The notes beneath the pieces are model-generated. The model made no database searches. It was not told the origin of the DNA and saw only the letters and a list, made by a program, of their open reading frames with translations. Shown piece by piece: positions 10,233 to 45,380 of a DNA stretch of 64,000 bases (positions are counted from its first letter, which is position 1; each line of letters starts with the position of its first letter). The translations under genes were made by a program, and so were the position numbers. Source of the DNA: a virus (Duplodnaviria; Heunggongvirae; Uroviricota; Caudoviricetes); the IMG/VR virus record IMGVR_UViG_3300042485_001768; one strand, 5' to 3'.

Positions 10233-10400
10233 CCCTGGTCCACATGGACTTAGAGAATTATTATAAATTAACTTTCTCTTTAATTCAGTATCATAAATAT
10301 TCATTAACAGAGATTGAAAATTTGATACCGTGGGAGCGGGATATTTACGTTACTTTATTGAAGGCTCACTTGGAAGAAGAAAAACTTAAACAGCAACAAA

Positions 10401-12803: not shown

Positions 12804-12804
12804 A

Positions 12805-15800
12805 ATGGCTGTACTAGATCCTAAAAAATTATTACCATCTTCTAAGGAAGAAAATAAAAGGGCATCTTATAGTAATGTTACTAGATTTTTAGTACCAGCA
12901 AAAAATGTGCAGTATAGGGATACTGCACCAGTTTCTCCAGAACCTGATGAACAAGAATCTAACATTGATTTAAAAAAAGATGTTTTAATTATTAAAGAAA
13001 AAGTAATATCTATAGAGGATATTTTAAAAAAGAGTTTAGATTTACAAAAGAAAACTTTAATAGGAAAAAGTAAAGATTTAGAAAATAGAAAAAGAGCAAA
13101 AAAAGAAAGTATTTTAGAACAAAAAAAAGATAAACCTGTTCTAGGTGGATTATCTGTTCCCACTAAAAGAATGGGACTACTTGACAGCATTAAAAATTTT
13201 GTTACTAGTACTTTACTTGGATTTGTTTTAGTAAGACTAGTAAAATATCTCCCACAAATAATTGATTTTGCTAAAAAAATAACTCCAGCAATAACTTTTA
13301 TTGAGAGTTTTGTTGGTGGAATGGCTAATAAATTAATTAGTTTTATTGAGATTGGATATGGTGTATATGATAAAGTCAGAGATACTATTAAAAATATTGG
13401 TGGAGAGAATCTTCAAAAAACTTTTGATCAATTTTCTGGGCAGTTAAACACTTTTATTAATCTTGCTATAATTGCTGGAATGTCCACCATGGGTGGAACT
13501 GATTTTGGAATGGGTAAAAAAAGTCCAAAGGGACTGCCTACTAAACCTGGAACAAAACCTACAGCACCATCAAATCAATCTCTTAACAGATATTTAAATC
13601 GAGGGAAGGAAGCAAAATTAATTGAAAGAAAATTTGGTAATAGTGCAGCAAGATATTATGAAGAACTAAGAGACTCTGGTAAAAATTCTACACAAGCATT
13701 CAAAGAAGTTAAAAGAAGATTTCAACCAAGAGGATTATTTAATCGCAGAAATATTTCTGGACTTGCTGGAGAAGGACAAACTGCTGGGCAAGTCGGTAGG
13801 AGAGGGCTTGGAAGAACTGCAACTAGATTTGCTACAAAGAACTTTGGTAAGGGTGGGGCAAAAATTGCTAGTGGTGCTACTAAAGCACTCGGTAGATTTC
13901 CTATTATTGGACCTTTAGTTGATTTTGCTTTTAGATATTTTGTTCTTAGAGAACCACTTGGTAAATCTGCTGCTGGTGCTGTTGGTGCTGGAGTTGGGCA
14001 AGCACTTGGTACATGGTTGGGTGGAACTGTAGGTGGTGTTGCTGGAACTGTAGTCCCAATTATTGGTAATTTAATTGGTGCTGGTGCTGGTGCTGCGATT
14101 GGAGGTCTTCTTGGTGGATTAATTGGAGATCAATTGGGTGTAAGTTTGTATGAAACCATTGTTGCTTATCAAAAACCACCAAAAATTGAAGGCCGTGCTA
14201 AAGGTGGACAGGTATCTACAAGAGGTGGAAAACAAGTTGGTGGAAAAATACAAAGATCTTTTAAAAGAGCAAAACCAAAACCACCAAAAATAAATGAAAG
14301 ACCAGTTCAAATTGGTAGAGATATTGGTGGACAAGAAGTAATTGAAAAAGTATTTACTCCAGAAGATCCAAAAAATTCTCAGCAAATGAGTTCTTTGAGG
14401 GTTTTAACAACTGCATCTAGTGAACTTAAAAAACCAAATAGTTCATTTTTTGGTCAAATTATGGGTGTTGGTGTTGATCTTGTAATGGGTCAAAAACCAA
14501 ATAAGAATTTTTATAATCAAGTTGGCAATGCTTTTGGTTCGGTTATTCAACAATTAATTGATACAAATGCTGATATGGCAGTCAATGATACTGCAAGAAC
14601 TATTCTAGCAATGGCTAATGGTGGAATAGTTCCGACTATGTTATCAAATGATAAGTTAAATTTTGGTGAAAGAGTTGGAAATGCTGTTGCTGGAATGTTT
14701 AGGCAATTTGTAGAAAGACAATCTGATATAATATTAAATTCGATTAAATTGGAATCTGAAAAGACACCTCCTGCTGGGTCTGTTACTGGAGACCCTACTG
14801 CTGGATTAGATGGAGAACTTGCTGCTGGAACTGTGGCAAGAGGGCAAATAACTATTGAACAACTTGTTGGTTTGGCTAAAGGTGCTGGATTTAGTCAGTC
14901 TGATGCTATAATTATGGCTGCAATTGCTATGGCAGAATCTGGTGGAAATTCCAACGCACATAATGCAAAACCACCAGATAATTCATATGGTTTATGGCAA
15001 ATTAATATGATTGGTAATTTGGGTCCAGAGAGAAGAAAACAAATAGGAATAACAAGTGATGACCAATTAAAAGACCCAGTTATAAATGCACACGCTGCAA
15101 AATTGATAAAACAAAGTCAAGGATTTAGTGCATGGACAGTATATAAAACTGGGGCATACAAAAAACATTTAAATGCTGCACAAAAATCTGCAAGTGCTTC
15201 ACCAATTACAGTATACAAACCATCAACTGGTGCAAATATTGATCCAAATATGCAGCTTGGAAGTGGGCGAGGGAATTTACAATCTGTTAGATCATTAGCA
15301 GAAAGTATGGGTGTTCCTTTATTCTCTAGTTATCGCCCAGGATCTAGAGGTTATCATGGAGTTGGTCGTGCAATGGATTTCTCAAATGATTCTAAAGGAT
15401 TAGGAACACCGCAACAACTTGCTTTGGCAAAAGAAATTGTAAAAAGATATGGAAGTTCCGTTCAAGAATTAATATATACTCCTCTTGGATTTGGAATTTC
15501 TGGAGGTAAAAAAGTTCCTTTAACACATTGGGGACCACCATCAAAATCTAAATGGGCTGGGGGAGATCCTTCCAATACTAATGCTGCACATTATGACCAT
15601 GTTCACGTAGCATTTAAAAAGGGTGGTTATACTGGTGATGGTGGTGTAGGATTACTTCACAAAAATGAAATGGTTATGTCTTCAAAGGCAGTTAATCTAT
15701 TTGGCAGAGAAACTTTTGAAGCAATGAATGAGATGGGTAATAAAATGCATGATATGAAACCATCTGCAAAAATATCAAAAGTAAATAAAAAATCTTATGT

Positions 15801-24312: not shown

Positions 24313-24383
24313 GCGGGTGTGGTGTAGCGGTAACATACCATCCTTCCAAGTTGTAGTCACGGGTTCGATCCCCGTCACCCGCT
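24313..24383 (+). tRNA. tRNA-like element with a non-canonical anticodon arm (possible pseudo-tRNA or atypical tRNA)
   Basis: Perfect 7-bp acceptor stem GCGGGTG/CACCCGC. D-arm GTGT-AGCGGTAAC-ATAC. T-arm ACGGG-TTCGATC-CCCGT. A TTCCAAG stretch could present a CCA or UCC anticodon, but no 5-bp anticodon stem pairs. Confidence 0.45.
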
Positions 24384-25036: not shown

Positions 25037-25453
25037 ATGTTAGGAACTTGCTCTTATTGTTCGCAAAAGTTTAAGTACAAACCATCACAACAAAGTGGTA
25101 AGTATTGCTCTAACACTTGTCAGCAAGAGATTCAAAAAAGACAAAGGATTTCTGAGTGGTTATCTGGGGGAAAACTTCCAGGTAAAACTACACTAAGAGA
25201 ATATCTCACAGAAAAACACGGCTATAAATGTTCGTGCTGTGGGATAACTGAATGGAACAATAACCCAATCAGTTTAGAGGTTGACCATATTGATGGAAAC
25301 CCCTATAATGATAGTCCTGACAATCTCAGGTTTATCTGTCCTAACTGTCATTCTCAAACACCTACATATAAGGCAAAGAATAAAGGTAACGGCAGAGTTC
25401 ATAGACGTGAGAAAGCAAAATTAGATTTTCATAAACAAAAAATATGCTCCTAA
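25037..25453 (+). CDS. HNH endonuclease (homing-endonuclease-like)
   Basis: 138 aa. CSCCG..EWNNNPISLEVDHIDGNPYNDSPDNLRFICPNCH is a complete HNH/Zn-finger motif. Sits between the two tRNA elements. Confidence 0.75.
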   Translation: MLGTCSYCSQKFKYKPSQQSGKYCSNTCQQEIQKRQRISEWLSGGKLPGKTTLREYLTEKHGYKCSCCGITEWNNNPISLEVDHIDGNPYNDSPDNLRFICPNCHSQTPTYKAKNKGNGRVHRREKAKLDFHKQKICS

Positions 25454-25518
25454 AGCATTTAGTGGCGATGTACCTGACTTGTAATCAGGAGAGGATGGTT
25501 CAATTCCGTCTGGGAGCT
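25446..25518 (+). tRNA. tRNA-Thr (anticodon UGU)
   Basis: Manual fold: acceptor GCTCCTA/TGGGAGC with one G-U. D-arm GCAT/ATGT. Anticodon stem CCTGA/TCAGG with loop CTTGTAA (U33, UGU, A37). Variable AGAG. T-arm GATGG-TTCAATT-CCGTC. Discriminator T. Overlaps the HNH stop codon. Confidence 0.8.
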
Positions 25519-28900: not shown

Positions 28901-31835
28901 TGATTCTTCAAATTCCCCATCTGTTGAACCATTTACTCAACTAAGATTCTCTCAACCAGTAAAAAATCTTTATCCACAACTAGATAGAGATAATATTACT
29001 TCTGACCCAGATCCAACAGTATCTTTTGCATTACCTTCTCCATTAGGATTAGTCGAAGTTAATAATCCAGAGAATTCTGTTACTAGAGAAAGTATTGTAA
29101 AGAGCATTAATGATTTTGCTGTAGGATTTGGATTGACTGATATCCAATCTGCTACTGGATTTGCACATACATTATATACTAGAATTGACCATGGATTAAA
29201 CAGAATTACTAGAGTTGGTATAGTAAGTGCTGGTGAAAATTATGGTTCTGGTTCTGGTTCTATTGAAACTCTTTATAATGCTAGGTTAGTAGGATTTGCT
29301 GGTTCAACAACTGGCAACTATGCAACTGCAAATATTAAAGTTGATGCTTTAGGTAGAATAACTGATGTTAGAATTGTTGATGGTGGTTCTGCGTATGGAA
29401 TTGGTAATACCCTTTCCGTGGTTGGTGTTGGTACAACATTAGGACATATTGTTGGTGTAGTATCTGTAACCCAAATTAATAATGATATTGGTAATGTAAT
29501 TTCTATAAGTGGACTATATGATAAAGTATTTGATACTTACAATAATCTTTATAGAATTACTGGAATTAACGTAGGGCAAACAAATCAAATTCAAGTTACT
29601 TCTTCTTCTGAAGTAGTTGCCCAATATCCATTTACTGGTTCTACTGCAATTGCTGGTGTTAATACTAATGGATTAAGTAAAATTAATGCAACTTTTTTAA
29701 ATACTGTCGAGTCTTATGTAACTGGCAATTCTCTTGGAATCACTTCATTTACTTATAACAACTCTACTGGAATTGCTAGTGTAACAACATTACAATCTCA
29801 TGGATTTGTAAATGGTACAAAGTTTAAAATTGGTGGATTTAATCAAAGTCTTTATAATGGTGATTTTATTACCACAAAAATTGTTGGATTAAATGATTTT
29901 GAATTTAATATTGGTATAGGTACAACTTCTCCAGTATCTTCTGGAATAGCATACATTTATATTCCAGGATTTGCCGCACAAGGTGGATTATTGGCTGCGG
30001 ATAATGAAGCAAATTCCAGTAGACTTGTTGCACAATATGCGGGTATTACAACTACTTTGGATGTTGCTTTAGTAGATCCAACAATCAATACATTGACAGT
30101 TACAAATGCATTAAACCGCAATTGGCAAGCTGGGGATTATATTATTGTAAACAAAGAAATAATGCGTATTAGTGAAACTGTCGTAATTGACACTGCAATA
30201 GATGTATTCCGTGGATTGTTTGGAACTTCAAAACAAGTACATCCTGCTGGATCTGTTGTTAGAAGAGTAAGATTTAAACCAATTGAATTTAGAAGAAACT
30301 CTATTCTACGTGCTTCTGGTCATACTTTTGAATATCTGGGTTATGGTCCAGGTAACTACTCTACAGCACTTCCAGAAAGACAAGATAGACAATTTATTGA
30401 TGTTGAAAGAGTCTTATCACAGTCTGTAAGTGATGATGGTGGAACTCCAATTTATAATGGATTGGACGATAATGGTAATACATATACAGTTAATAAACTA
30501 ACAAATGCTTCTACTGGTCAAGATTTATTAACTAAAGCACCAATCCCAACTGTCAGGGGTGAAGATATTACATCGAATACACAAGCAGTTGGATTTGATG
30601 TAGATTCCACTGATGATTTAACAGTTGCTAGAGGTTTAAAGGTTGAGGGTGGTTCTGAGTCTACTATTATTTCTGAATTTAACGGTCCCGTAATCTTTAC
30701 CGAAAAAATAACATCGACTTCTGAAGATGGTATTTTGGCATCATCGTTATTCCTTCAAGGAGAATCGACAACTTCTAGAAAATATACCGTAGGAATTGCT
30801 ACTCCACTATTATCTGGTAATGCTGGAGATATTGTTTATAAAGCAGATCCTAATGGCGGTGTTGCTGTTGGATGGGTTTATACTTTAGAGAATTCCTGGC
30901 AAGAATTTGGTCCTATTAAATCTGTAGGAACTGAAAGATATTGTGGTATCTTTAGTGGTGCATTTGTTGGTGATGGTTCTGGTCTTGATAATGTATCTGA
31001 TGTTTGGGTGTTCGATGGTATTGGTATCTCTACCACAAGAGCTGTTGGTATGGGAACAACTACATCTGTTCCAAGCGTTGCACTATATGTTGGTGGTAAT
31101 GCAATTTTTGCTGGTGTTACAACAATTAGAACAAATCAGCTAACATTTGATGTTCCAAATGGATTCCTCGTTAATACAGGTATAACAACCTTTAATCAGC
31201 AAGTTAATGTTAATACATTAAGAGCGATTGGTATTTCTACATTCCAAAATGACGTTATTATTACAACAAATCCAGCAACAACTGGAGATACTGCAGGTAA
31301 CTTCTTAAGATTTGTTCAATCTGATACCGCAATTACTTCTGCTTATCAATATGGGGGAATTAATTGGGAGGGTAATGATATTGGTAATACTGGAGTAAGA
31401 GGATACATTAGGGGTGTTGCCGAAGGTAGTACAGGACAGTTTGCTATTACATTTGGAACCCAACAGTCTGGTCCTTCCGCACCAATTGAACAATTAAGAA
31501 TTGCTTCTGATGGTAATATTACTGCTAGTGGAGAAATTACTGCACTATCTGATGAAAGATATAAGACAAATGTGAAGAATATTGATGACCCTCTCGCTAA
31601 AGTTTTACAACTTCGTGGTGTAGAATATGATAGAATCGATAAAGAACAACATACTATTGGACTTATTGCTCAAGAAGTAGAAAAAGTTCTTCCTGAATTG
31701 GTTCACGAAAATCATGAGGGAGTAAAATCAGTTGCATATCAAAACATGGTTGCACTTCTAATTGAGGCAATTAAAGAGCAACAAAAACAAATTAGTGATT
31801 TGAAAGAAGAGGTTGACAAATTGAAGAATGTTTAG
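25998..31835 (+). CDS. giant tail fibre / tail spike protein (1945 aa) with C-terminal intramolecular chaperone (peptidase S74-type) domain
   Basis: C-terminus ...ALSDERYKTNVKNIDDPLAKVLQLRGVEYDRID...GLIAQEVEKVLPELV matches the auto-cleaving chaperone domain, with the Ser-Lys dyad in SDERYK (Ser codon ~31548). The rest is Thr/Ser/Gly/Asn-rich and beta-rich. Confidence 0.75.
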   Translation: MGLSRLDNFLKNSRGDIIYVDPSSIDSTDSIENQGNSLVRPFKTIQRALIEAARFSYQRGLDNDRFGRTTIIVYPGEHLIDNRPGWIPIHDNPVAGNNWLTRGGAVSNEFPEFNLNSNFDINNDTNDLYKMNSVFGGIIIPRGTSIVGMDLRKTKIRAKFIPNPEDDTIDRTSIFRVTGSCYFYQFTFFDADPNSVVFKDYGPTKFVPNFSHHKLTCFEYADGVNPVIFDDQYITYKTTKTDLDLYYDKIALAYGSSSGRLISPDFPTDGVDVQTKIDEYRIVGSKGQNVGITSIKAGDGVVSSTTITVDIEEPIGGLDVDTPIRIEGVPTAGYNGQYVVSTSESPTRITYKTSSSPANPLPTIVSGTPTLNIVVDTVTSASPYIFNCSLRSVFGMCGLHADGSKADGFKSMVVAQFTGIGLQKDDNAFLKYNTTSGVYEDKTAVSNIHTNSSAVYKPEYENFHIKASNDAFLQLVSVFAIGYANHFLAESGGDHSITNSNSNFGAKSLVARGFKKEAFSRDDTGFITHIIPPQEIQSEDINVEYTSIDVETTVGIGSTTRLYLYNETDLDNPPLSVVDGYRIGSKINDELKVLLNINGQSTTKTSKIIMPNTQSTGIYESSSYKEAVVGRTNIGINSISSNTFTLTAPHQFIQGESLRVFSSDGELPDGLNHNQVYYAITAGINSDQIKLSQTFNDTITEDAVTVNNKGGILTIESRVSDKKSGDIGHPIQFDSNIGQWYLTVSGISSYNQIYSSVVGLGTTTLGRTTPRTFITRKSDTRSLIDKIYKVRYVIPKDSAVIARPPRDGFVIQESNTTIGATQEEIGKYNSVDAVILNNSSELRNYRFISNAVWDSVGIATLTTEVPHELSVGSLIQINNIKSGFNTTGVGNSGFNGEYFVTSKLSRREFTIGLTTNPGLFQSDTSIRDVELPYYKRVRFNNTFVVYKSEEIQQYVPNTKDGVYHLTIIDSSNSPSVEPFTQLRFSQPVKNLYPQLDRDNITSDPDPTVSFALPSPLGLVEVNNPENSVTRESIVKSINDFAVGFGLTDIQSATGFAHTLYTRIDHGLNRITRVGIVSAGENYGSGSGSIETLYNARLVGFAGSTTGNYATANIKVDALGRITDVRIVDGGSAYGIGNTLSVVGVGTTLGHIVGVVSVTQINNDIGNVISISGLYDKVFDTYNNLYRITGINVGQTNQIQVTSSSEVVAQYPFTGSTAIAGVNTNGLSKINATFLNTVESYVTGNSLGITSFTYNNSTGIASVTTLQSHGFVNGTKFKIGGFNQSLYNGDFITTKIVGLNDFEFNIGIGTTSPVSSGIAYIYIPGFAAQGGLLAADNEANSSRLVAQYAGITTTLDVALVDPTINTLTVTNALNRNWQAGDYIIVNKEIMRISETVVIDTAIDVFRGLFGTSKQVHPAGSVVRRVRFKPIEFRRNSILRASGHTFEYLGYGPGNYSTALPERQDRQFIDVERVLSQSVSDDGGTPIYNGLDDNGNTYTVNKLTNASTGQDLLTKAPIPTVRGEDITSNTQAVGFDVDSTDDLTVARGLKVEGGSESTIISEFNGPVIFTEKITSTSEDGILASSLFLQGESTTSRKYTVGIATPLLSGNAGDIVYKADPNGGVAVGWVYTLENSWQEFGPIKSVGTERYCGIFSGAFVGDGSGLDNVSDVWVFDGIGISTTRAVGMGTTTSVPSVALYVGGNAIFAGVTTIRTNQLTFDVPNGFLVNTGITTFNQQVNVNTLRAIGISTFQNDVIITTNPATTGDTAGNFLRFVQSDTAITSAYQYGGINWEGNDIGNTGVRGYIRGVAEGSTGQFAITFGTQQSGPSAPIEQLRIASDGNITASGEITALSDERYKTNVKNIDDPLAKVLQLRGVEYDRIDKEQHTIGLIAQEVEKVLPELVHENHEGVKSVAYQNMVALLIEAIKEQQKQISDLKEEVDKLKNV

Positions 31836-31863
31836 TAAGATTTGACCATAACTATATGGTATT

Positions 31864-32703
31864 ATGAATTTTACTATATTATCAAATCCTCCATATCAAG
31901 ACAATAATAAAGCAAAAAATAATAAACTTTGGTATAAATTTATTGAGTTAGATATTAATCTTCTTCAGACTGGCGGAACTATGGCAAAAGTTACGCCAGC
32001 ATCTTTCATTGGAACAACGGGATTCGGTAAAAAGTTTTTTCAAAAATGTCAAACAATTTATAATTTGATTCAGATTGACTATACTTCTGATAAGTATTTC
32101 ACTGAAGGAGTATCAATTTGCTCTTGGATTTTAAAAAAAGAACCATATAAAGGAACTACAAAAGTCATACATGAGACTGGAATTTATTATTTGGATTTGA
32201 GGGATGGTCTTCCTTTATTTGGTGAAGAAAAAATATTGCATTCTATTTTTAACAAAATAGCAAACTCAAATCATCCAAGAATACCTCTTAAGATTGGTCA
32301 GGATATTCCAAATGATGAATATTGTGATGATGGAAAATATGAGGTTTATGCCTCTGGTAAAAATATTAAAAGAACTAATGTTGTTCCAACAACTGGAGAT
32401 TTATTGAAGTTTGTAGTTCCATACTCGTGCTCATATTCTGGTAGATTTATCACAAATGGATATGTTGGTATGTTAAACTCGTGGTGCCATATTAAAAATG
32501 AAGAGGAGGGAGACCTGCTATCAAAAATTTTTGATGTTCCTCTAATACAATTGTTTGTTGAAAATTATAAAACTACTGCTGGATTTGCTGCAGCAGTTAA
32601 AAATGCAGAAGTTCCTCTTTTAAAGAATTTTGAAAATGTGCATGAACAATTTGATTTTACACCTGAAGAACTTGAGTATTTAAAAGATAAAAATGTCATC
32701 TAA
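31864..32703 (+). CDS. beta-class amino DNA methyltransferase, N-terminal part (motif IV NPPY + TRD-like region); frame-disrupted or split gene
   Basis: 279 aa beginning MNFTILSNPPYQ (motif IV). No AdoMet-binding motif I in this ORF. Overlaps the next ORF by 11 nt in a different frame. Confidence 0.55.
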   Translation: MNFTILSNPPYQDNNKAKNNKLWYKFIELDINLLQTGGTMAKVTPASFIGTTGFGKKFFQKCQTIYNLIQIDYTSDKYFTEGVSICSWILKKEPYKGTTKVIHETGIYYLDLRDGLPLFGEEKILHSIFNKIANSNHPRIPLKIGQDIPNDEYCDDGKYEVYASGKNIKRTNVVPTTGDLLKFVVPYSCSYSGRFITNGYVGMLNSWCHIKNEEEGDLLSKIFDVPLIQLFVENYKTTAGFAAAVKNAEVPLLKNFENVHEQFDFTPEELEYLKDKNVI

Positions 32704-37102: not shown

Positions 37103-38245
37103 ATGCACTACAAATTTCCAACAATTACAAATTTGGATCAGGTTAAAACTGCCATTGAAGGTTATGATGAATTTCGCGTAACTAACAAAGGATTTTATAC
37201 CGTAGTGAATTATGCTGTAGCATTCGATAATACTTTTGATATTGTCGATGAGAATGATGTTAATGGAATGATACGTAGAGAATGTAGGGGATTAATTTTT
37301 GATGTTGATGGTAATTTAATCTCTCGTCCTTATCATAAATTTTTTAATTTGAATGAAAGGAAAGAAACCCATATCGACACAGTTGGATTTGACCTCCACA
37401 CTGTTCTTGAAAAGATGGATGGATCTATGATTAGACCAATTCCTTCTGAATATGGATTTAGACTCGCCACTAAAGCTGGGATTACTGATGTTGCAATAAA
37501 TGCTGAAATTTTTATTTCAGATAAACCAGAGTATGCAAATTTTATTAATCATTGTATTTCTAGAAATCTAACCCCAATTTTTGAATGGTGCTCTCGTAAA
37601 AACAGAATCGTAGTTGATTATCCAGAAGATAAATTAGTTCTTACTGCTTTGAGAAGTATTAAAAATGGTTCTTATTGTTCGTATAATAACCTTCGTCTTT
37701 TATCTGAACATTATGATATTCCTCTGGTTAAAAAATGGCCAGATAATATGGACATACAACAATTAGTTGAATATGTCCGTAATCTTGAAGATGAGGAAGG
37801 TATTGTTCTTCGTTTTGATAATGGACATATGTTAAAAATCAAAGCAGAAGAATATGTTCTTCGTCATAAATCTAAAGAACAAATCAGTCAAGAAAAAAAT
37901 GTCTTGGAAGTAATCATTGAAGATAAAGTTGATGATGTAATACCATTATTGAGTGATTCTGATGCCAACAGATTAAAATACTTCCAAAAGGCATTTTGGA
38001 TTAATGTTGACGAGGTTGCTTTTAATTTAGCAGAAGTTTATCAAAAAGGAAAAAACTATAAAGATAAGAAATCTTTTGCTGTGGAGTTTGTTCAAAAACT
38101 TAGTCCTCACTTGCAACCATTCATGTATGCAATGAATTCTGGAAAAGGTTCTAAGAGTCTTTTGATAGAATCTATTAAAAAGTCTACTACTTCACAAACT
38201 AAGATTGATCAATCACGTTGGATGTGGGGAAACCTAGTTTGGTAA
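37103..38245 (+). CDS. rnlA: RNA ligase 1 (T4 RnlA-like)
   Basis: 380 aa. ECRGLIFDVDGN, RPYHKFFNLNE and adenylation motif I EKMDGSMI match T4 Rnl1 (ECRGIMFE, RPMEKFFNLNE, KEDGSLV). Confidence 0.8.
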   Translation: MHYKFPTITNLDQVKTAIEGYDEFRVTNKGFYTVVNYAVAFDNTFDIVDENDVNGMIRRECRGLIFDVDGNLISRPYHKFFNLNERKETHIDTVGFDLHTVLEKMDGSMIRPIPSEYGFRLATKAGITDVAINAEIFISDKPEYANFINHCISRNLTPIFEWCSRKNRIVVDYPEDKLVLTALRSIKNGSYCSYNNLRLLSEHYDIPLVKKWPDNMDIQQLVEYVRNLEDEEGIVLRFDNGHMLKIKAEEYVLRHKSKEQISQEKNVLEVIIEDKVDDVIPLLSDSDANRLKYFQKAFWINVDEVAFNLAEVYQKGKNYKDKKSFAVEFVQKLSPHLQPFMYAMNSGKGSKSLLIESIKKSTTSQTKIDQSRWMWGNLVW

Positions 38246-38249
38246 ATTT

Positions 38250-38726
38250 ATGGAAAACGTATCAATAGAACCATATAAAACAATATTAGTTCTTAACGCA
38301 AGTTATGAACCAATAAATTTTTGTAATTGGAAAAGAGCCGTTGTGCTTTTACTAAAAGAGAAAGCACAATTATTGTCATCTAGAGTCATACGATTGGTAA
38401 ATTACATAAATTTACCAATTTCTAAAATAATTTCATGCAAACCATCTAGGCATTTAATTTACAAAAGAGATGACCACAGATGTCAGTATTGTGGTTCTAT
38501 AAAACAACTTACAATTGACCACGTAATTCCAAAATCTAAAGGTGGTAAAGATACTTGGGAAAATTTAGTGGTTGCTTGTATGCCATGTAATACAAAAAAA
38601 GGTGATAGAACTCCAGAAGAATGGGGAACTCCTCTATATCAAAAACCAAAAGCATTATATAATAAAATGCTAATATCTTTAAAATCTTCTAATGTTCCTG
38701 AATGGAAGGAGTACGTTTATGCCTGA
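38250..38726 (+). CDS. HNH endonuclease
   Basis: 158 aa. HRCQYCGS....LTIDHVIPKSKGGKDTWENLVVACMPCNTKK is a canonical HNH motif. Inserted between the ligase and kinase genes. Confidence 0.75.
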   Translation: MENVSIEPYKTILVLNASYEPINFCNWKRAVVLLLKEKAQLLSSRVIRLVNYINLPISKIISCKPSRHLIYKRDDHRCQYCGSIKQLTIDHVIPKSKGGKDTWENLVVACMPCNTKKGDRTPEEWGTPLYQKPKALYNKMLISLKSSNVPEWKEYVYA

Positions 38727-39195
38727 ATGTGTAATGTTGTGTGGAATTCCTACTTGTGGGAAGTCCACATATGTTAAAAAATTACAATCTTTAAACTATT
38801 GGAAAGATGCTGTAGTATTATCTACCGACAATTATATTGAGAAGCAGGCACAAAGGATGGGTCTGACTTATAATCAAATTTTTGATGATGTGATTGATGA
38901 TGCAACTCGGGAACTTGAACTTGAGTTCAATATGGCAAAGGACAAGGGAAAAGACATCATTTGGGATCAGACAAACTTATCAATTAAGTCCAGAAAGAAA
39001 AAACTTTCTAAACTTCCTTCCTATTACAGGAGAGAGGCGGTATACTTTGAAATAACATTGGAGGAAGCACTAAAACGAAATGAATGCCGTGAAGGCAAAT
39101 TCATTCCCAAAAGTATTCTTCATAGAATGTACCATCAGTTTGAATTTCCAACCTTAGAAGAGGGATTTGATTATGTTGAAAAAATTAAAGTTTAA
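38719..39195 (+). CDS. P-loop polynucleotide kinase-like protein (Pnk kinase-domain-like)
   Basis: Walker A MLCGIPTCGKST follows the ATG at 38719 (MPECVML...), which overlaps the HNH stop. The ORF track's 38692 start would overlap HNH further. About 158 aa with a kinase-like D..TN layout. Confidence 0.6.
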   Translation: MPECVMLCGIPTCGKSTYVKKLQSLNYWKDAVVLSTDNYIEKQAQRMGLTYNQIFDDVIDDATRELELEFNMAKDKGKDIIWDQTNLSIKSRKKKLSKLPSYYRREAVYFEITLEEALKRNECREGKFIPKSILHRMYHQFEFPTLEEGFDYVEKIKV

Positions 39196-39400
39196 ATCTC
39201 CATACAATCATCATTTTGAATATACTAGCGATATTGAACGTATCGTAAAAATCTTTGCCGATCGTGGATATGAGATTTCACATCAAGATGCTGTTCATGC
39301 TTGGGAAGAATTTTCTGACAGTATGTGTGCAGGTTGGATGTGCTTAGGTGAAGATGATGAAGTCTTTCAAGACGCATTTTATTATTTTGAGGAAGTTTGA
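39167..39400 (+). CDS. hypothetical small protein
   Basis: 77 aa ORF between the kinase and phosphatase genes. Confidence 0.3.
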   Translation: MIMLKKLKFKSPYNHHFEYTSDIERIVKIFADRGYEISHQDAVHAWEEFSDSMCAGWMCLGEDDEVFQDAFYYFEEV

Positions 39401-39864
39401 TGGCAGAAAAAAAGAAAAATTGTTTTATATTTGACTTAGATGGAACGATTTGTAATGTAAGTCATCGTAGACAATATGTTGTAACCAAACCACGTAACTG
39501 GGATGCTTGGAACAAAGGTCTCATTAATGATGTACCTAACGTAGCAGTTCAAAAGGTATTCCAAGCACTTCGCAATGCTAATGATTACGATACTGATTTG
39601 ATTATTGTTTCTGGTCGCTCAGACGATTATAAAGAACAAACGGTCAAGTGGTTGACTGATAATGAAATCTTTTACGATGAAATTTATATGAGAAAGTATA
39701 AAGATCATCGGGATGATGCTGTTGTTAAAGCAGAAATTGCTGACGAAATTGAAAAAACTCACCAAATTCTTGGTGTGTTTGATGACCGTCAGAGGGTTGT
39801 GAATATGTGGATTGAGCGTGGTATCTGGGTGTTCGACGTTGGGCAAGGTAAGGGCAATTTTTGA
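39397..39864 (+). CDS. HAD-family phosphatase (Pnk 3'-phosphatase-domain-like)
   Basis: 155 aa. FIFDLDGTI (DxDGT motif I), IVSGRS (motif II), and GVFDDR.RVVNMW (motif III/IV-like). Confidence 0.65.
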   Translation: MMAEKKKNCFIFDLDGTICNVSHRRQYVVTKPRNWDAWNKGLINDVPNVAVQKVFQALRNANDYDTDLIIVSGRSDDYKEQTVKWLTDNEIFYDEIYMRKYKDHRDDAVVKAEIADEIEKTHQILGVFDDRQRVVNMWIERGIWVFDVGQGKGNF

Positions 39865-39929
39865 ACTGGCACATACAATCCCACATCTGAGTTTTTTTAA
39901 CCTATAATCATCTTGTACGAAAATTAACA

Positions 39930-40217
39930 ATGAGTTTTTCCAAAACTGTTTCCGTTTTCGCTGCACTTGCAAGTATTTTTGCTGCTGGAGCTACTGGTTG
40001 GAAACTTGCAAATTCCCAACAAGAAGTTCCTTTGAATCCATTAGACCAAAAAGTAATGGAGTTGGAAAAAAAGATTGAAGAAGTAACAACTGAAAAACCA
40101 ATTGAGCAAGTGGTACAACCACAAGTAGAATTGCAACCTAAACCAACTATACCTCCAGTACCACCACTACCCCCGCTTCCAGCACCTACAGAGGACACAA
40201 ATGAACAAACTCCGTAA
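39930..40217 (+). CDS. small secreted/membrane-anchored Pro-rich protein
   Basis: 95 aa with a signal-anchor (VSVFAALASIFAAGA) and C-terminal PTIPPVPPLPPLPAPT. Confidence 0.4.
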   Translation: MSFSKTVSVFAALASIFAAGATGWKLANSQQEVPLNPLDQKVMELEKKIEEVTTEKPIEQVVQPQVELQPKPTIPPVPPLPPLPAPTEDTNEQTP

Positions 40218-41244
40218 ACTTGCTTCCATCAAACCTATCACCTATATCAAACCGATTGAAGGTGCTGATGCTATTGAGTGTGCTATTGTTGATGGTGGTT
40301 GGCCTGTAGTTGTCAAAAAAGGTGAGTATAAGGTTGGGGATATTGCCATCTACCTTGAGATTGATAGTTGGGTGCCCCACAAACTTGCTCCATTCCTTAG
40401 TAAGGGTCAAGAACCCCGTGAGTATAATGGTGTAAAGGGTGAGCGTCTTCGTACTGTTAAACTTCGTGGTCAAGTTAGTCAGGGTCTTCTGCTGCCGATT
40501 GAACTTACGTTCTGGCGTGATATTGGCACGGACCTTACAGAATCTCTGGGTATTCAGAAGTGGGAACCGCCCATCCCTGCTCAACTTCAGGGTACGATGA
40601 AGGGTAACTTCCCACACTTCATTCCTAAAACTGATCAAGAGCGTTGCCAAAATCTTCGTAAAGACATCTTTGAGACTCATAAAGAGGAGATTTATGAAGT
40701 CACCGTCAAACTTGATGGTAGTAGCACCACTATCTATGTCAAAGATGGTGAGGTTGGTGTATGTTCGCGGAATATTGACCTCATTGAAACTGAGGGCAAT
40801 AGTTTCTGGAAAGCAGCACGGGAGCAGAATATTATCGAACCTCTTCTTGAATTGTGTAAAGAAAAGGGTGAAGAATATGCTATTCAAGGTGAATTGATTG
40901 GTGAAGGTATTCAGGGTAATCCTGAAAAAATCAAAGGTCAACGATTCTATTTGTTTGATATTTACAGTATTACCTGTGGTGAATATTTTAAAGCAAATGT
41001 TCGATATAGTATTCTCGATAAACTAAAGATGCTTGGTGCTGATATTGAGCACGTTCCTATTGTTGATGTTGATGTTCGTGTTGCTCAAGCATACGACAGT
41101 ATTGATGACCTTCTTGAGTTTGCTGAGGGTCCATCGTTGAATCCTCAGACCAAACGTGAAGGTCTGGTCTTCAAATCGTGGGAAAGTGACTTTACTTTTA
41201 AAGCAATTTCTAACTCTTATCTCCTAAAGCATAAAGACCGATGA
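40201..41244 (+). CDS. second ATP-dependent RNA/polynucleotide ligase (KxDG nucleotidyltransferase with N-terminal OB-like domain; DraRnl/NgrRnl Rnl5-like)
   Basis: 347 aa. Motif I VTVKLDGSSTTIY. The KxDG motif is preceded by a ~150-aa N-terminal domain rather than followed by an OB domain, as in the Rnl5 family. Higher GC than surroundings. Confidence 0.55.
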   Translation: MNKLRKLASIKPITYIKPIEGADAIECAIVDGGWPVVVKKGEYKVGDIAIYLEIDSWVPHKLAPFLSKGQEPREYNGVKGERLRTVKLRGQVSQGLLLPIELTFWRDIGTDLTESLGIQKWEPPIPAQLQGTMKGNFPHFIPKTDQERCQNLRKDIFETHKEEIYEVTVKLDGSSTTIYVKDGEVGVCSRNIDLIETEGNSFWKAAREQNIIEPLLELCKEKGEEYAIQGELIGEGIQGNPEKIKGQRFYLFDIYSITCGEYFKANVRYSILDKLKMLGADIEHVPIVDVDVRVAQAYDSIDDLLEFAEGPSLNPQTKREGLVFKSWESDFTFKAISNSYLLKHKDR

Positions 41245-42041
41245 AAGTAAAAGTTGTATCCGATTTACATTTAGAATGTTGTGAATACGGTCACGGTGTT
41301 CCTGACCTTGGAGAGGGAGAAGTCTTAATTCTTGGTGGTGATATTCTCTGTGCTCGACACTTCAAAAAAGACGGAAACCTTCACAAGGTTTATACCGACT
41401 TCTTGAAGAAGTGTGCCGACAACTTCATGCACGTTCTGTATATCGCAGGAAATCATGAAGCATATGGATACAACTATGAAGGAACTTGGAATGTTCTCAA
41501 AGAAAACCTTCCCAATGGTATTCATCTGATGGAAGATAGTGTAGTGAAGATTGCGGACTGGGTTTTTATTGGTTCGACTTTTTGGACTGATTTCCGCAAT
41601 GGAAATGCCCTGGAAATGATGGAAGCAGCACAGTGTATGAATGATTATAAGACCATTCGCATTACTCCAAAGTATCGCAAGATGAATCCTGATGATACTT
41701 ATGCCTTTCATAACAAATCAAAGCAATTTCTACTGGATCAGTTAGAACTTTTTAAAAATCAAAAAATTTGGGTTCTCACGCACCATGCACCATCTTATCA
41801 ATCAGTTCATGAGCAGTATAAAACAAGTGGTATTGCGAATGGTGCATATGTCAGCGATCTTGATGATTTTATTTTAGAACATCCAGAGATTAGAATTTGG
41901 TCTCATGGACATACACATAACTCATTTGATTACAAAATTGGTGATTGTAGAGTTGTCTGTAATCCCAGAGGGTACTATAATGGATATAATAATTCTGGTT
42001 TGAATTTAGATTTTGATCCAAATTTTGAAATTGAGTTATGA
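41241..42041 (+). CDS. calcineurin-like metallophosphoesterase
   Basis: 266 aa. Motifs VVSDLH, GGDI, AGNHE, THHAP and SHGHTH. Confidence 0.75.
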   Translation: MKVKVVSDLHLECCEYGHGVPDLGEGEVLILGGDILCARHFKKDGNLHKVYTDFLKKCADNFMHVLYIAGNHEAYGYNYEGTWNVLKENLPNGIHLMEDSVVKIADWVFIGSTFWTDFRNGNALEMMEAAQCMNDYKTIRITPKYRKMNPDDTYAFHNKSKQFLLDQLELFKNQKIWVLTHHAPSYQSVHEQYKTSGIANGAYVSDLDDFILEHPEIRIWSHGHTHNSFDYKIGDCRVVCNPRGYYNGYNNSGLNLDFDPNFEIEL

Positions 42042-42235: not shown

Positions 42236-42395
42236 TACTGCTAGATTTCCTTATCCAAATTTCCCATTTAGATTAGAATACGAAGAAAACAAAGTTAAAA
42301 GAGTTTGTCATTTTGAGTGTAAAGAACATCTCAATAAATATTTGGAACGTCATAAACTTAAAAAGAATAAAGTTACAATCGAAACTCGTAAATGA
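42189..42395 (+). CDS. hypothetical small protein
   Basis: 68 aa ORF with a CHFEC motif. Confidence 0.25.
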   Translation: MRHPKINFMVEQKMIDTARFPYPNFPFRLEYEENKVKRVCHFECKEHLNKYLERHKLKKNKVTIETRK

Positions 42396-43225
42396 AAATA
42401 TTTAAAGTCCCTCACATAGAATTACATGTAACGCATACTTGCAATTTTAGTTGTGAAGGATGTTCTCATTATTCTAATCATGGACATTCTGGGTCTTTAA
42501 CTTTAAAAGAATGTGATGAATGGTTGTATTCTTGGAGTAGAAGATTACAACCAGAACTATTCACTATACTTGGTGGTGAGCCAACTCTTAATAAAAATTT
42601 GATTGATATAATTTATCTGGTTCGGATGATGTGGCCAGATACTGCAACTGCTATTGATCTTGTATCAAATGCTAGTTTTTTACATACACATCCAAATTTA
42701 CCGCAGGCATTATTGGATACTGACAGTACTTTAGCAATATCTATTCATAGTAAAGTACATGCTGGATATGTAAATAAATTTAAAAAAGGTTATAGATTGA
42801 CAAAAGAATGGAGAAAGCAATACGGAATTAATTTAGAATTTTGGGATTTTACCACAGATACCTGGACTCCTCAATATAATGGATTTGGGAATAATATGCT
42901 TCCCTATGAAGATAATAATCCAAGAAAGAGTTGGGAGAAGTGTCTATCTAAAAAAGCTCTACAAATACATGAGGGTAAATTGTGGAAATGTCCACCATTG
43001 GCATATTTACCAATGCAAGCAAAAAAATATAATCTTGACAAAAAATGGGATCCTTATTTAAAATATAAACCATTAGATTCGGATTGTTCTGATCAAGAAC
43101 TTGAAGAATTTTTAAATAAAGAAGATGAATGTTTTTGTTCTATGTGCCCTGCAAATATGGATAATCCTTATAAAAAAAATGATCCAACTCTTCCAGTAAG
43201 TTATTGGGAGAAGTTAAATTCATGA
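42392..43225 (+). CDS. radical SAM enzyme
   Basis: 277 aa. HVTHTCNFSCEGCSHY is a CxxxCxxC 4Fe-4S/SAM cluster motif near the N-terminus. GGEPTLN is a glycine-rich SAM motif. Confidence 0.7.
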   Translation: MKIFKVPHIELHVTHTCNFSCEGCSHYSNHGHSGSLTLKECDEWLYSWSRRLQPELFTILGGEPTLNKNLIDIIYLVRMMWPDTATAIDLVSNASFLHTHPNLPQALLDTDSTLAISIHSKVHAGYVNKFKKGYRLTKEWRKQYGINLEFWDFTTDTWTPQYNGFGNNMLPYEDNNPRKSWEKCLSKKALQIHEGKLWKCPPLAYLPMQAKKYNLDKKWDPYLKYKPLDSDCSDQELEEFLNKEDECFCSMCPANMDNPYKKNDPTLPVSYWEKLNS

Positions 43226-44646
43226 TTACCTGGGGAATATCATCAGAGAGTCATAATGCTGCACTTTCTGTATTTGTTAATGATAGTCTAGTCTTCGCAA
43301 GCGAAAGTGAAAGATTCAGTGGTATAAAAAATGATGCTTATTTAAATAATGGCATTATTGACTATGCACTAAAGTTTGGAAAACCAGAATTGGTATGCTG
43401 GTATGAGAATCCATATAAGAAAACGTTTAGACAACTTCTTGCAGGTCAAGGATGGATTCAGAACGTCAAAAAGTATGTTGATGTTCCAATCAAGTATTAT
43501 GACCATCACTATACTCATGCTTGTGCTGGTTACTTTACCAGTCAGTTTGACGAGTGTTGTGTGGTGGTTATTGATGCTATAGGAGAATTCCAAACACTTA
43601 CTATCTGGGAAGCAAGAGGTAATAAATTAAAACTTAAATTTCAACGTAAATATCCACACAGCGTTGGACTTTGGTATTCTGCAATGACACAAAGGTGTGG
43701 ATTAAAACCAAATGAAGAAGAGTATATCCTCATGGGCATGTCTGCTTATGGGGATAAAACACGTTATGAAGATGATATCTATAAAGATTTCATAGGATTT
43801 AGAACAGCAACCTTTAAAAAGAATTTACATAAAGGATGTGTTGATTGGAGACCAGATATTAAAAACACTTTTGATATCGCTGCTGCAACTCAAAACATTT
43901 ATGAAACAATTTTTAGAGATATTATGCAAGTAGCATCCAATAAAGTAAAAAGTAAAAATTTAGTTCTAATGGGTGGATGTGCGTTAAATTGTGTTGCAAA
44001 TCCAATTGCATATTATTATTTTGACAATTTATGGATTATGCCTGCACCTGGAGATAATGGGTCTGCCATTGGTTCTGTGCTTGCACATAAAAAGAAACAT
44101 ATTGATTGGCATGGACCTTATCTTGGATATTATATTAAATCAGTTGCATCAAACGAAGAAATTGTTAACCACTTAATGGATTATGGTCTTTGTGGAGTTG
44201 CAAGAGGTTGTGCAGAGTTTGGTCCTAGGGCACTGGGGAATCGTAGTTTATTTGCAGACCCTAGAGATCCACAAATTAAATCAATGGTCAACAATATTAA
44301 ACAAAGACAACAGTTTAGGCCATTTGCACCAGTAATTATGGAAGAATATGTACACGATTACTTTAGAATGCCTACAAATTCTTCACCATACATGCAATAT
44401 GCTGTAAAATGTAGATATTCTAAAAAGTTTCCAGCAATTGTTCACATAGATAAAACAAGTAGAGTTCAAACTGTTAATAGACAACAAAATACAGAACTTT
44501 ATGATCTTTTAAAGATGTGGAATGAAAAAACAGGTTGTCCTATGTTATTGAATACTAGTTTGAATATTAAAGGGAAACCGATGGTAAATGATGAAAAAGA
44601 TTGTAAAGAATGGGAAGAAACTTATGGGGTTAAAATATTCTCATGA
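43204..44646 (+). CDS. carbamoyltransferase (NodU/CmcH/TobZ family)
   Basis: 480 aa. N-terminal domain IKYYDHHYTHACAGYFTSQFDECCVVVIDAIGE matches the carbamoyltransferase N-domain HH..HA..A...S.F..A.V..DG.GE signature. C-terminal domain present. Confidence 0.7.
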   Translation: MGEVKFMITWGISSESHNAALSVFVNDSLVFASESERFSGIKNDAYLNNGIIDYALKFGKPELVCWYENPYKKTFRQLLAGQGWIQNVKKYVDVPIKYYDHHYTHACAGYFTSQFDECCVVVIDAIGEFQTLTIWEARGNKLKLKFQRKYPHSVGLWYSAMTQRCGLKPNEEEYILMGMSAYGDKTRYEDDIYKDFIGFRTATFKKNLHKGCVDWRPDIKNTFDIAAATQNIYETIFRDIMQVASNKVKSKNLVLMGGCALNCVANPIAYYYFDNLWIMPAPGDNGSAIGSVLAHKKKHIDWHGPYLGYYIKSVASNEEIVNHLMDYGLCGVARGCAEFGPRALGNRSLFADPRDPQIKSMVNNIKQRQQFRPFAPVIMEEYVHDYFRMPTNSSPYMQYAVKCRYSKKFPAIVHIDKTSRVQTVNRQQNTELYDLLKMWNEKTGCPMLLNTSLNIKGKPMVNDEKDCKEWEETYGVKIFS

Positions 44647-45380
44647 ATATTATAGATAATTTAAACAATAAAAACTTTTTTCCTATTGATAAACCAAATA
44701 ACAAATTTTGGTATGACCAAGATACAAAAGAACGATATATTCATAATTTAAAAGTTCAACCAGAAGAATGGCATTATAGAGATAAAATAGTTTATTATTT
44801 GACAAATTCTTTTGGATATAGAACTAAGCCATTTAAAGATATTGATTGGAGAAAATGTATTGTTTTATTTGGGTGTTCTTACATTTACGGTGTTGGTAGT
44901 GCAGAAGATGAAACTGTAACTGGATATTTGGAACAAATAACTGGAATTCCTGTAATTAATATGGGAGCACCTGGATCTTCACCAACCTTTTCTTTACATA
45001 ATTCTGGAATTTTGAGTGCAAAATATCCAAATCCAAAAGCAGTTGTTTATGGTTGGTCTTCTCAATATAGATGTCCTTTTTATACTAAAAATGAAGTTAT
45101 TCATTGTGGTAATTGGTTAAAAGATTCTAAAAAAATGGGAGAATCGTGGAATAGTAATGAAGAACATCCTGCAGTAAATTTAAAATTATCATCTATTATT
45201 TCTAAAGAAATGTGGAATAATAGAACAAAATATTATGAATTTACATTCTTTAAGACAGTTTCGGACGTTTTAAATTGTGATTATATAAAACAAGTTGATT
45301 ATGCAAGAGATTTGGGACATTCTGGAAAAGAAACTAATAAAATTGCTGCTGAAACTATTGCTAAAAATTTGAACTTGTGA
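44643..45380 (+). CDS. SGNH/GDSL-hydrolase-like protein (paralog A)
   Basis: 245 aa. VLFGCSYIYGVGSAED...ITGIPVINMGAPGSS...VVYGWSS is collinear with ORF 45836..46642. Confidence 0.45.
   Translation: MNIIDNLNNKNFFPIDKPNNKFWYDQDTKERYIHNLKVQPEEWHYRDKIVYYLTNSFGYRTKPFKDIDWRKCIVLFGCSYIYGVGSAEDETVTGYLEQITGIPVINMGAPGSSPTFSLHNSGILSAKYPNPKAVVYGWSSQYRCPFYTKNEVIHCGNWLKDSKKMGESWNSNEEHPAVNLKLSSIISKEMWNNRTKYYEFTFFKTVSDVLNCDYIKQVDYARDLGHSGKETNKIAAETIAKNLNL

Follow-up and report, generated by a model that had tools for sequence, protein, structure and literature searches.

A predicted two-gene polynucleotide kinase beside Rnl1 and Rnl5 RNA ligases in a mosaic locus of a T4-like phage

What do two RNA ligases, a kinase, a phosphatase, an endonuclease and a phosphoesterase do side by side in one phage genome? 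We asked this of positions 37,103 to 42,041 of a 64,000-nucleotide stretch (the window) of the IMG/VR virus record IMGVR_UViG_3300042485_001768. The window is part of a T4-like myovirus, encoding baseplate wedge and hub proteins and a tail fibre of 1945 amino acids (aa). An earlier reading made from its letters alone (the sequence-only reading) had seen here an expanded RNA-repair locus with two parallel healing-and-sealing routes. Our preferred answer, to which we give a probability of about 0.62, is that the locus is an RNA-break repair string in the accessory region of the phage, in which one healing module feeds two ligases, Rnl1 and Rnl5. It builds on the observed identities, catalytic motifs, synteny and mosaicism of the genes.

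In the proposed mechanism, the healing module consists of two separate genes. A DxTN-type P-loop kinase would phosphorylate 5'-OH ends, and a phosphatase of the HAD superfamily, resembling that of polynucleotide kinase (Pnk), would remove the 3'-phosphate or 2',3'-cyclic phosphate, the latter by analogy with T4 Pnk, whose phosphatase also acts on 2',3'-cyclic phosphate. The resulting 5'-PO4/3'-OH ends would go to two ATP-dependent ligases whose specificities complement each other. Rnl1 would seal single-stranded loop breaks, for example where a host anticodon nuclease has cut a tRNA in its anticodon loop, and Rnl5 would seal duplex-held nicks with an RNA 3'-OH strand. The HNH gene would be a mobile endonuclease lodged at the Rnl1/kinase junction, and the metallophosphoesterase (MPE), a backbone gene of the phage group, would have been brought beside Rnl5 by mosaic recombination.

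All six co-oriented genes of the sequence-only reading were found on the plus strand at the coordinates it had given, and family searches confirmed their predicted domains. Two small conserved open reading frames (ORFs) absent from its list, orf77 and orf95, bring the string to eight genes, with functions as predicted:

37103..38245, plus strand: Rnl1-family ATP-dependent RNA ligase (380 aa), with a nucleotidyltransferase (NTase) domain and a T4 Rnl1-type C-terminal domain
38250..38726, plus strand: free-standing HNH endonuclease (158 aa), at the Rnl1/kinase junction
38719..39195, plus strand: stand-alone P-loop polynucleotide/tRNA-type 5'-kinase (158 aa; a start at 38692 is possible and would give 167 aa)
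39173..39400, plus strand: orf77, a small acidic ORF between the kinase and HAD genes, a 75-aa gene call in independent assemblies
39400..39864, plus strand: stand-alone Pnk-type HAD 3'-phosphatase (154 aa; the ORF opens at TTG 39397)
39930..40217, plus strand: orf95, a predicted small membrane protein with a Pro-rich tail, directly 5' of the Rnl5 gene and overlapping it
40201..41244, plus strand: Rnl5-family nick-sealing RNA ligase (347 aa), with N-terminal OB and NTase domains and without a C-terminal domain
41241..42041, plus strand: calcineurin-superfamily MPE (266 aa), with an ATGA overlap with the Rnl5 gene

Genes in the string are separated by 4-nt gaps or overlap by 1-17 nt, the sole exception being a 65-nt gap 3' of the HAD gene, whose start is most likely ATG 39400, overlapping the preceding stop as TGATG. 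The identical eight-gene arrangement and the exact Rnl5 protein recur on contigs of six assemblies made independently (three from ENA, one from JGI and two from Logan). Thus, the locus is not an assembly chimera but a real, repeatedly sampled genotype.

The kinase matched Pfam AAA_33 (E 1e-16) and PHROG 505, annotated 'polynucleotide kinase'. A check set beforehand asked whether it is a polynucleotide kinase or a dNMP (deoxynucleoside monophosphate) kinase. A profile built from 28 homologues and run against the PDB matched PSTK (2e-12), the mammalian PNKP kinase (1e-9) and T4 Pnk (2e-9 for 1ly1 and 7e-9 for 1ltq), as well as Pnkp1 and the kinase domain of CthPnkp; these are polynucleotide and tRNA kinases, and no dNMP kinase was among the PDB matches of the profile. 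The active site of the T4 Pnk kinase comprises the P-loop Lys/Ser, the catalytic Asp35, Arg38, Asp85 and Arg126. Across the 28-sequence alignment, G9, G14, K15, D37, D83-Q-T-N86, R92, R120 and R124 are invariant, and comparison with the T4 list finds G14-K15-S/T, D37, D83 and R124 kept throughout, but not the Arg38 position.

The HAD protein matched Pfam HAD_PNKP (E 7e-28; 98 bits, cutoff 27.6), PHROG 415 and PHROG 505 (both 'polynucleotide kinase'), Pnkp1 (4xrp; 3e-11) and T4 Pnk (1ltq; 1.6e-4), and it retains the DLDGT, SGR and DDR motifs. The kinase and the HAD protein tile the same references, at positions 1-142 and 158-294 of PHROG 505, residues 11-155 and 183-307 of Pnkp1, and residues 4-143 and 158-299 of T4 Pnk. 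By homology, then, the two are the halves of a Pnk. Family matches and retained motifs thus agree with the sequence-only reading in its identification of a stand-alone polynucleotide-type kinase and a stand-alone Pnk-type DxDGT HAD phosphatase.

These halves lie in separate ORFs with orf77 between them, and so do not form the single polypeptide of a T4-type Pnk. The split had been called unusual for phage Pnk, a judgement that did not survive comparison. Among related IMG/VR loci recovered by Rnl1, MPE or Rnl5 anchors (designated below by L and a number), all 44 that carry both a kinase and a HAD gene have them as separate ORFs, in either order (kinase before HAD in 23, HAD before kinase in 21). 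A stand-alone kinase of ~150 aa also adjoins Rnl1 in cultured phages (Caulobacter Cr30, Ruegeria/Roseobacter phages and Rhodobacter RcXuper, and further Synechococcus B3/B23 and BUCT-ZZ01). The profile of PHROG 415, annotated 'polynucleotide kinase', has 218 positions, as would fit a family of phosphatases alone, and it matches the stand-alone HAD protein over positions 18-168. We also considered that kinase, orf77 and HAD form one frameshifted polypeptide, and set this aside: the kinase and HAD genes are in the same frame, yet stop codons intervene, and relatives without orf77 keep the two as overlapping ORFs in different frames.

The first ligase matched Pfam RNA_lig_T4_1 (E 3e-25; 89.7 bits, cutoff 28.3), T4_Rnl1_C in its C-terminal part (30.6 bits, cutoff 27) and PHROG 562 (E 9e-73), which bears out the claim of an RNA-repair locus with an Rnl1 ligase. 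It aligns to T4 Rnl1 (2c5u; E 5e-23) with conserved CRG, KFFNLNE, KxDGS, EG and KIK motifs, matching T4 positions R54, K75/F77, K99, E227/G228 and K240/K242; the NTase motifs I, III, IV and V of Rnl1 enzymes are present. Its score for TIGR02308, the equivalog model of T4 RnlA, falls below the cutoff (135.3 bits vs. 242.25), and by homology it is a divergent member of the Rnl1 family rather than a close orthologue of the T4 enzyme.

The adjoining HNH ORF scored over the cutoffs of Pfam HNH and HNH_5 (60.4 and 60.8 bits, respectively; E 1e-16), as expected of the beta-beta-alpha metal motif of HNH endonucleases, and matched PHROG 16726 (E 1e-53). Rnl1 abuts the kinase directly in L083 and L122-125, and HNH homologues (45-69% identical) occur elsewhere in related phages, up- or downstream of the MPE or upstream of Rnl1. 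Because the junction is empty in those loci and the homologues sit at varied positions, we regard the HNH gene as a mobile endonuclease gene, in keeping with the insertion that had been proposed. In L052 (IMGVR_UViG_3300005611_000002), Rnl1 itself is split into a 196-aa N-terminal ORF with a KMDGS motif and a 192-aa C-terminal ORF (10001-11951) by an insertion of ~830 bp with an antisense GIY-YIG-like ORF of 221 aa; the same was seen in L051 and L170, and could reflect a homing-endonuclease insertion or an intron.

The second ligase passed the TIGR02306 equivalog model RNA_lig_DRB0094 (182.5 bits, cutoff 151.15) and matched Pfam PHA02142 OB (residues 7-100; E 2e-27) and RNA_ligase (residues 165-335; E 4e-25). 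Its match to Naegleria gruberi NgrRnl (5cot) is end-to-end and collinear (residues 4-347 against 4-340; E 3e-97; 54% identity over 332 aligned residues), with conserved motifs VKLDGSS (identical, with the motif-I lysine), QGE.IGE.IQGN, REGLVFK and FKAISN. The sequence-only reading had called this gene 'Rnl5-like' and proposed a check against DNA ligases and capping enzymes; by the NgrRnl match and the DRB0094 model it is clearly assigned to Rnl5, not to either of those. Rnl1 and Rnl4 enzymes seal loop breaks, and Rnl2 and Rnl5 enzymes seal duplex nicks (PMC4408790), Rnl5 acting on 3'-OH/5'-PO4 duplex nicks with an RNA 3'-OH strand (PMC4408790, PMC5397189). Taken together, the predicted catalytic motifs are intact in all four enzymes (Rnl1, kinase, HAD and Rnl5), apart from the Arg38 equivalent of the kinase. 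The 54% identity of Rnl5 to the enzyme of a freshwater amoeba is as high as its identity to many phage homologues (47-55%), and may reflect horizontal transfer between phage or bacteria and a protist.

Do these genes keep company beyond the window? In Rnl1-anchored IMG/VR loci, a kinase was found within 10 kb in 31 of 63 and a HAD gene in 38 of 63. This co-occurrence persists through rearrangement and divergence, and is therefore hard to explain without selection for co-function. Rnl5-anchored loci had Rnl1 within 7 kb in 17 of 79 cases, and Rnl1, kinase and HAD together in 11 of 79. In the seven loci with the closest Rnl5 (L122-125, 89%; L128/129 and L150, 80-81%), kinase and HAD are directly upstream in all, and the order Rnl1-kinase-HAD-x-Rnl5 is present in six; the contig of the seventh, L129, ends inside the kinase. 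The order is permuted in L147/148 (Rnl5-Rnl1-kinase…HAD) and divergent in L131/136. Two ligases are still 2-4 kb apart in the diverged lineages L032-36, L058/59, L189, L194, L196 and L198, where Rnl1 and Rnl5 are 38-40% and 47-49% identical to the window genes, respectively.

In three loci, the gene immediately preceding Rnl5 encodes cRec (PF20274), a domain that is predicted to process 2',3'-cyclic phosphate ends and is linked to RNA ligases (Iyer et al. 2021, PMC7824862). These are L034 (13439-13801), L196 on the same contig, and L213 (278-631), on a contig of a metagenome-assembled genome (MAG). We found no cRec gene in the window or in loci where the MPE adjoins repair genes. Overall, the neighbourhood data favour a predicted RNA-repair role for phage Rnl5. 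As a separate observation, cRec genes recur in Rnl1/kinase/HAD neighbourhoods (L009, L014, L019, L022, L023, L037, L038, L047, L191 and L195).

We then compared the window with its closest relatives. It is collinear with the IMG/VR contigs L004/L005 over ~20 kb. The main difference is at window 39865-41261, where orf95 and Rnl5 stand in place of a 334-bp segment that encodes a 104-aa RlpA/DPBB-like protein in L004. The order in L004/L005 is Rnl1-HNH-kinase-orf77-HAD-x-MPE, and the Rnl1-kinase-HAD-x-Rnl5 strings of L122-125, L128/129 and L150 are without HNH, orf77 and MPE. Identities (%) of the window proteins to the two locus types are:

L004: Rnl1 93, kinase 84, HAD 82, Rnl5 absent, MPE 89
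L122: Rnl1 56, kinase 80, HAD 88, Rnl5 89, MPE absent

Because these per-gene identities form a gradient, the window is a recombinant of the two locus types. One junction is in the kinase-HAD region, and the other, at 41252-41262, falls within the MPE gene close to its edge. Three elements make up this mosaic, an Rnl1-HNH-kinase-orf77-HAD…MPE backbone, a HAD…Rnl5 part resembling phages with Rnl1-kinase-HAD-Rnl5 strings, and a mobile HNH gene, and the adjacency of MPE and Rnl5 results from the junction at 41252-41262.

Two other origins for the Rnl5 part were examined. Recent import of Rnl5 from a cyanophage was hinted at by a DNA match to Synechococcus phage S-CREM1 (80.7%, in Rnl5 only) and by the rise in GC content, which is ~0.30-0.34 in the window, to as much as 0.40 at 40-42 kb; we rejected it as the main story because closer Rnl5 genes (89%) occur in Rnl1-kinase-HAD-x-Rnl5 strings of phages that share the backbone. 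A scan of bacterial genomes with Rnl5 returned 18 MAG loci, mostly on short contigs, none with a kinase, HAD or Rnl1 gene nearby; it does not support the idea that the four-gene string came from cells.

What, then, of the MPE? It matched Pfam Metallophos (E 8e-8) and PHROG 1649 (E 2e-51), and its metal-binding residues D8, H10, D34, N71, H72, H181/182, H222, H224 and H226 are invariant. The five motifs of calcineurin-like enzymes (DxH, GD, GNHE, H and GHxH) and the alpha/beta sandwich fold are all present. It had no sequence match in the PDB at E<=1. The AF2 model (pLDDT 77, pTM 0.81) found its best folds in PptH, TT1561, aq_1956, Mre11 and MPPED2, and so models in the PptH/MPPED2/Mre11 branch rather than in the PPP/lambda-phosphatase branch of CthPnkp. 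The family, with 5354 proteins at E<=1e-5, is very large and has members in cyanophages, KVP40-like vibriophages, Rak2/121Q-like jumbo phages and rhizobiophages. RNA-repair genes lie within 7 kb in 6 of 52 MPE-anchored loci and are absent from the other 46 (~88%); the MPE is ~13 kb from Rnl1 in Synechococcus phage B23, and the closest Rnl5-bearing relatives lack it. The MPE is probably a widespread backbone gene of the phage group, not a dedicated repair component. Of the earlier claim about this gene, the calcineurin-type domain thus stands, motifs intact, and its membership in the repair unit is doubtful.

Several large, unrelated phages have members of the MPE family that either adjoin an ATP-dependent DNA ligase gene or lie within 1-2.5 kb of one:

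L068: 121Q genes 460-461
L210: GAP32 genes 099-101
L151: positions 10915-14431
L207: Vibrio phage nt-1

This proximity hints that the MPE has to do with ligase-related end processing, unless it reflects a conserved T4-like order of genes. None of the RNA-repair loci examined carries both MPE and cRec. This and the proximity to ligase genes are weak hints that keep alive a role for the MPE in nucleic-acid end processing. Another phage metallophosphoesterase, distinct from this one, reportedly damages the DNA of its host (PMC12287305).

The sequence-only reading assigned the MPE to a second route: T4-like Pnk with Rnl1 on the one hand, and on the other a kinase, MPE and Rnl5 resembling bacterial Pnkp/Hen1, in which the MPE would open 2',3'-cyclic phosphates. 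The start of the MPE gene does overlap the Rnl5 stop, and its metal-binding motifs are intact; Rnl1-(HNH)-kinase-HAD is immediately upstream in the six MPE loci with repair genes, and seven other loci have distant MPE homologues 3-5 kb away from Rnl5. The absence of repair loci with both MPE and cRec could reflect a non-orthologous replacement, and in a few jumbo phages calcineurin-like phosphatases take part in RNA repair (Iyer et al. 2021, PMC7824862). However, the string has a single kinase gene, the ligase is Rnl5 rather than the Rnl4 type of Pnkp, and the recombination junction accounts for the MPE-Rnl5 adjacency; the many MPE loci without repair genes, the distant MPE of B23 and the Rnl5 relatives without MPE also stand against a second route. 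Nor is there a Hen1-like methyltransferase in the string or beside it: a scan of the eight string ORFs and ten neighbours (31.8-46.6 kb, some small ORFs left out) found no methyltransferase, bar a sub-threshold match of ORF 31864-32703 to an Eco57I-like DNA methylase (23.6 bits, cutoff 25.3). The resemblance to the Pnkp/Hen1 domain composition is therefore at superfamily level only, and we think two parallel routes very unlikely.

Several points weigh against the reading that one healing module feeds both ligases. The position of T4 Pnk Arg38 is Ile or Leu in the kinase family, which has a different invariant arginine, Arg92, and because the Arg38 equivalent is absent and the best PDB profile match is PSTK, the exact substrate of the kinase is uncertain. 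Counts in a promoter and terminator scan of 36-43 kb were at chance level, equal to those in shuffled sequence. Gene packing is tight in all T4-like genomes, and is therefore no proof of co-function. The two-ligase loci are partly related by descent, and to that extent their counts are of non-independent events. The enzymatic activities, the in vivo substrates, the cooperation of Rnl5 with the healing genes and the counter-defence role are what we infer. Finally, Rnl1 is not within 7 kb in 62 of the 79 Rnl5 loci, some of which sit among DNA-metabolism genes, with thymidylate synthase and dihydrofolate reductase near Rnl5 in L178 and an ATP-dependent DNA ligase in L151, and the sole reported in vivo phenotype of an Rnl5 is in DNA-damage recovery: without DraRnl, D. 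radiodurans is more sensitive to ionising radiation and reassembles its genome with a delay (PMC5397189).

These last observations suit a different explanation, in which Rnl5, possibly with the MPE, acts on DNA-linked substrates and sits by Rnl1 and Pnk genes since accessory genes accumulate in a hyperplastic region. Rnl5 would then seal ribonucleotide-3'-OH nicks in phage DNA, at primer junctions or ribonucleotide-containing repair patches. DNA is tolerated by Rnl5 in the 5'-PO4 and template strands (PMC5397189), and the occurrence of the MPE family near DNA ligase genes is in line with this view. However, RNA is strictly required at the 3'-OH side (PMC5397189), cRec, the predicted RNA cyclic-phosphate processor, immediately precedes Rnl5 in three loci, and Rnl1-kinase-HAD-x-Rnl5 recurs where Rnl5 is 64-89% and Rnl1 53-59% identical, proximity persisting at ~38-49% identity; we consider a DNA-linked role unlikely. 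It is even less probable, and a shade less so than two routes, that there is no unit beyond Rnl1 and the kinase, the rest being a chance mosaic juxtaposition and Rnl1 serving mainly in tail-fibre attachment like T4 gp63. PHROG 562 is labelled 'RNA ligase and tail fiber protein attachment catalyst', mosaicism with variable slots is demonstrable, and the order of HAD and kinase varies; yet roughly half or more of the 63 Rnl1 loci also have the kinase and the HAD gene despite rearrangement and deep divergence, and the motifs of the four enzymes are intact, save for the Arg38 equivalent of the kinase.

A stronger form of the preferred reading, one healing module feeding Rnl1 and Rnl5, is that Rnl1-kinase-HAD-Rnl5 is a selected unit of an uncultured T4-like phage clade, its split Pnk healing ends for two break geometries. 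We hold this tentatively, as a possibility well short of even odds. If it is true, the job of phage Rnl5 would be counter-defence repair of duplex-embedded RNA breaks, as in tRNA stems or rRNA, which would be the first context-based functional assignment for the Rnl5 family. In its boldest version, the PptH/MPPED2-like MPE would replace cRec as the opener of cyclic phosphates.

How does the locus compare with known systems? T4 carries Pnk (PseT), Rnl1 (gp63) and the nick-sealing Rnl2 (gp24.1), and shares with the window a 5'-kinase, a HAD 3'-phosphatase, an Rnl1 with the tRNA-type C-terminal domain and a second, nick-sealing ligase. Since T4 itself has Rnl2, the two ligases of the window are not the expansion over T4 that had been claimed. 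The window differs from T4 in having kinase and phosphatase as separate genes with a 75-aa ORF between them, a kinase family without the Arg38 equivalent, an Rnl5 (N-terminal OB domain) in place of Rnl2 (C-terminal domain), all four enzymes in one string, and low identity to the T4 proteins. The locus would be functionally analogous to T4 Pnk, Rnl1 and Rnl2, with Rnl5 in place of Rnl2.

The Pnkp/Hen1 system of Clostridium thermocellum and Pnkp1-Rnl-Hen1 of Capnocytophaga gingivalis (4xrp) have heal-then-seal logic in common with the window; Pnkp1 is the best PDB sequence match for the window kinase and HAD proteins, and the CthPnkp kinase domain was matched by the kinase profile. In contrast to these systems, the window lacks a Hen1 methyltransferase and an Rnl4-type ligase, has separate genes instead of a fused polypeptide, and has an MPE outside the PPP branch. 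Within the Rnl5 family (NgrRnl; DraRnl, DR_B0094), the window ligase shares the N-terminal OB and NTase architecture and the motifs, and differs in being embedded in an Rnl1/kinase/HAD string. Phage homologues of Rnl5 were noted by Unciuleac & Shuman (2015; PMC4408790), and the physiological role of Rnl5 was described as 'uncharted' by Schmier et al. (2017; PMC5397189).

The survey of Iyer et al. (2021, PMC7824862) already covers phages that join several RNA ligases to polynucleotide kinases and to HAD phosphatases, fused or stand-alone; it also notes cRec domains, associations with HNH and, occasionally, calcineurin-like phosphatases. Sinorhizobium phage phiM12 has Rnl1 and Rnl5 ~9 kb apart with a metallophosphoesterase nearby, whereas all four enzymes are contiguous in the window; like the window, Cr30 and the Ruegeria phages encode their kinase as a stand-alone protein, with its gene next to Rnl1. 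With multi-ligase sets, stand-alone kinases and stand-alone HADs already documented, the locus is a fairly ordinary variant. What may be new is the contiguous Rnl1-kinase-HAD-Rnl5 string in an uncultured phage clade: we found this order only on uncultured phage contigs and did not find it described in the literature examined, although the survey of Burroughs & Aravind (2016) may already catalogue it.

Phage RNA repair counters host defences that cut tRNA and other RNAs, and enzymes that travel together help to predict which defences a phage evades. For Rnl5, its neighbours (Rnl1, polynucleotide kinase, Pnk-type phosphatase and cRec) yield a testable hypothesis for its role in vivo, and the locus offers a compact, naturally split Pnk for biochemical study.

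The two small ORFs matched no known family, orf77 at its cutoff in Pfam, PHROG and NCBIfam-type searches and orf95 in Pfam and PHROG. The very acidic orf77 product shares 87-88% identity with its counterparts in L004/L005 and 83-84% with that of L083, whereas L122-type clusters lack it. A homologue adjoins the MPE in L092. It may be an adaptor or an inhibitor, or have some other role. A homologue of orf95 (57% identical) lies directly upstream of the RNA ligase (Rnl5) in S-CREM1; others are upstream of Rnl5 in L132-135/L138 (51-53%) and downstream of the MPE in L070 and L075-81. A 251-aa antisense ORF (40186-40941, minus strand) wholly inside Rnl5 is a likely by-product of composition and was treated as spurious.

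The accessory region is cyanophage-style, encoding 2-oxoglutarate (2OG)-Fe(II) oxygenases, a radical-SAM protein and a carbamoyltransferase. Another variable slot lies upstream, where L004 2370-4760 holds ~2.4 kb of extra sequence at window 31809-31863, just 5' of the ORF with the Eco57I-like match. Two phage tRNA genes are ~12 kb upstream of the string, tRNA-Gly(TCC) at 24313-24383 and tRNA-Thr(TGT) at 25446-25518. Directly 3' of the MPE, 42392-45380 encodes a radical-SAM protein, a NodU/Nol-type carbamoyltransferase and a 245-aa ORF without an assigned function; this group is kept in L004 and may be a cassette for small-molecule or nucleoside modification.

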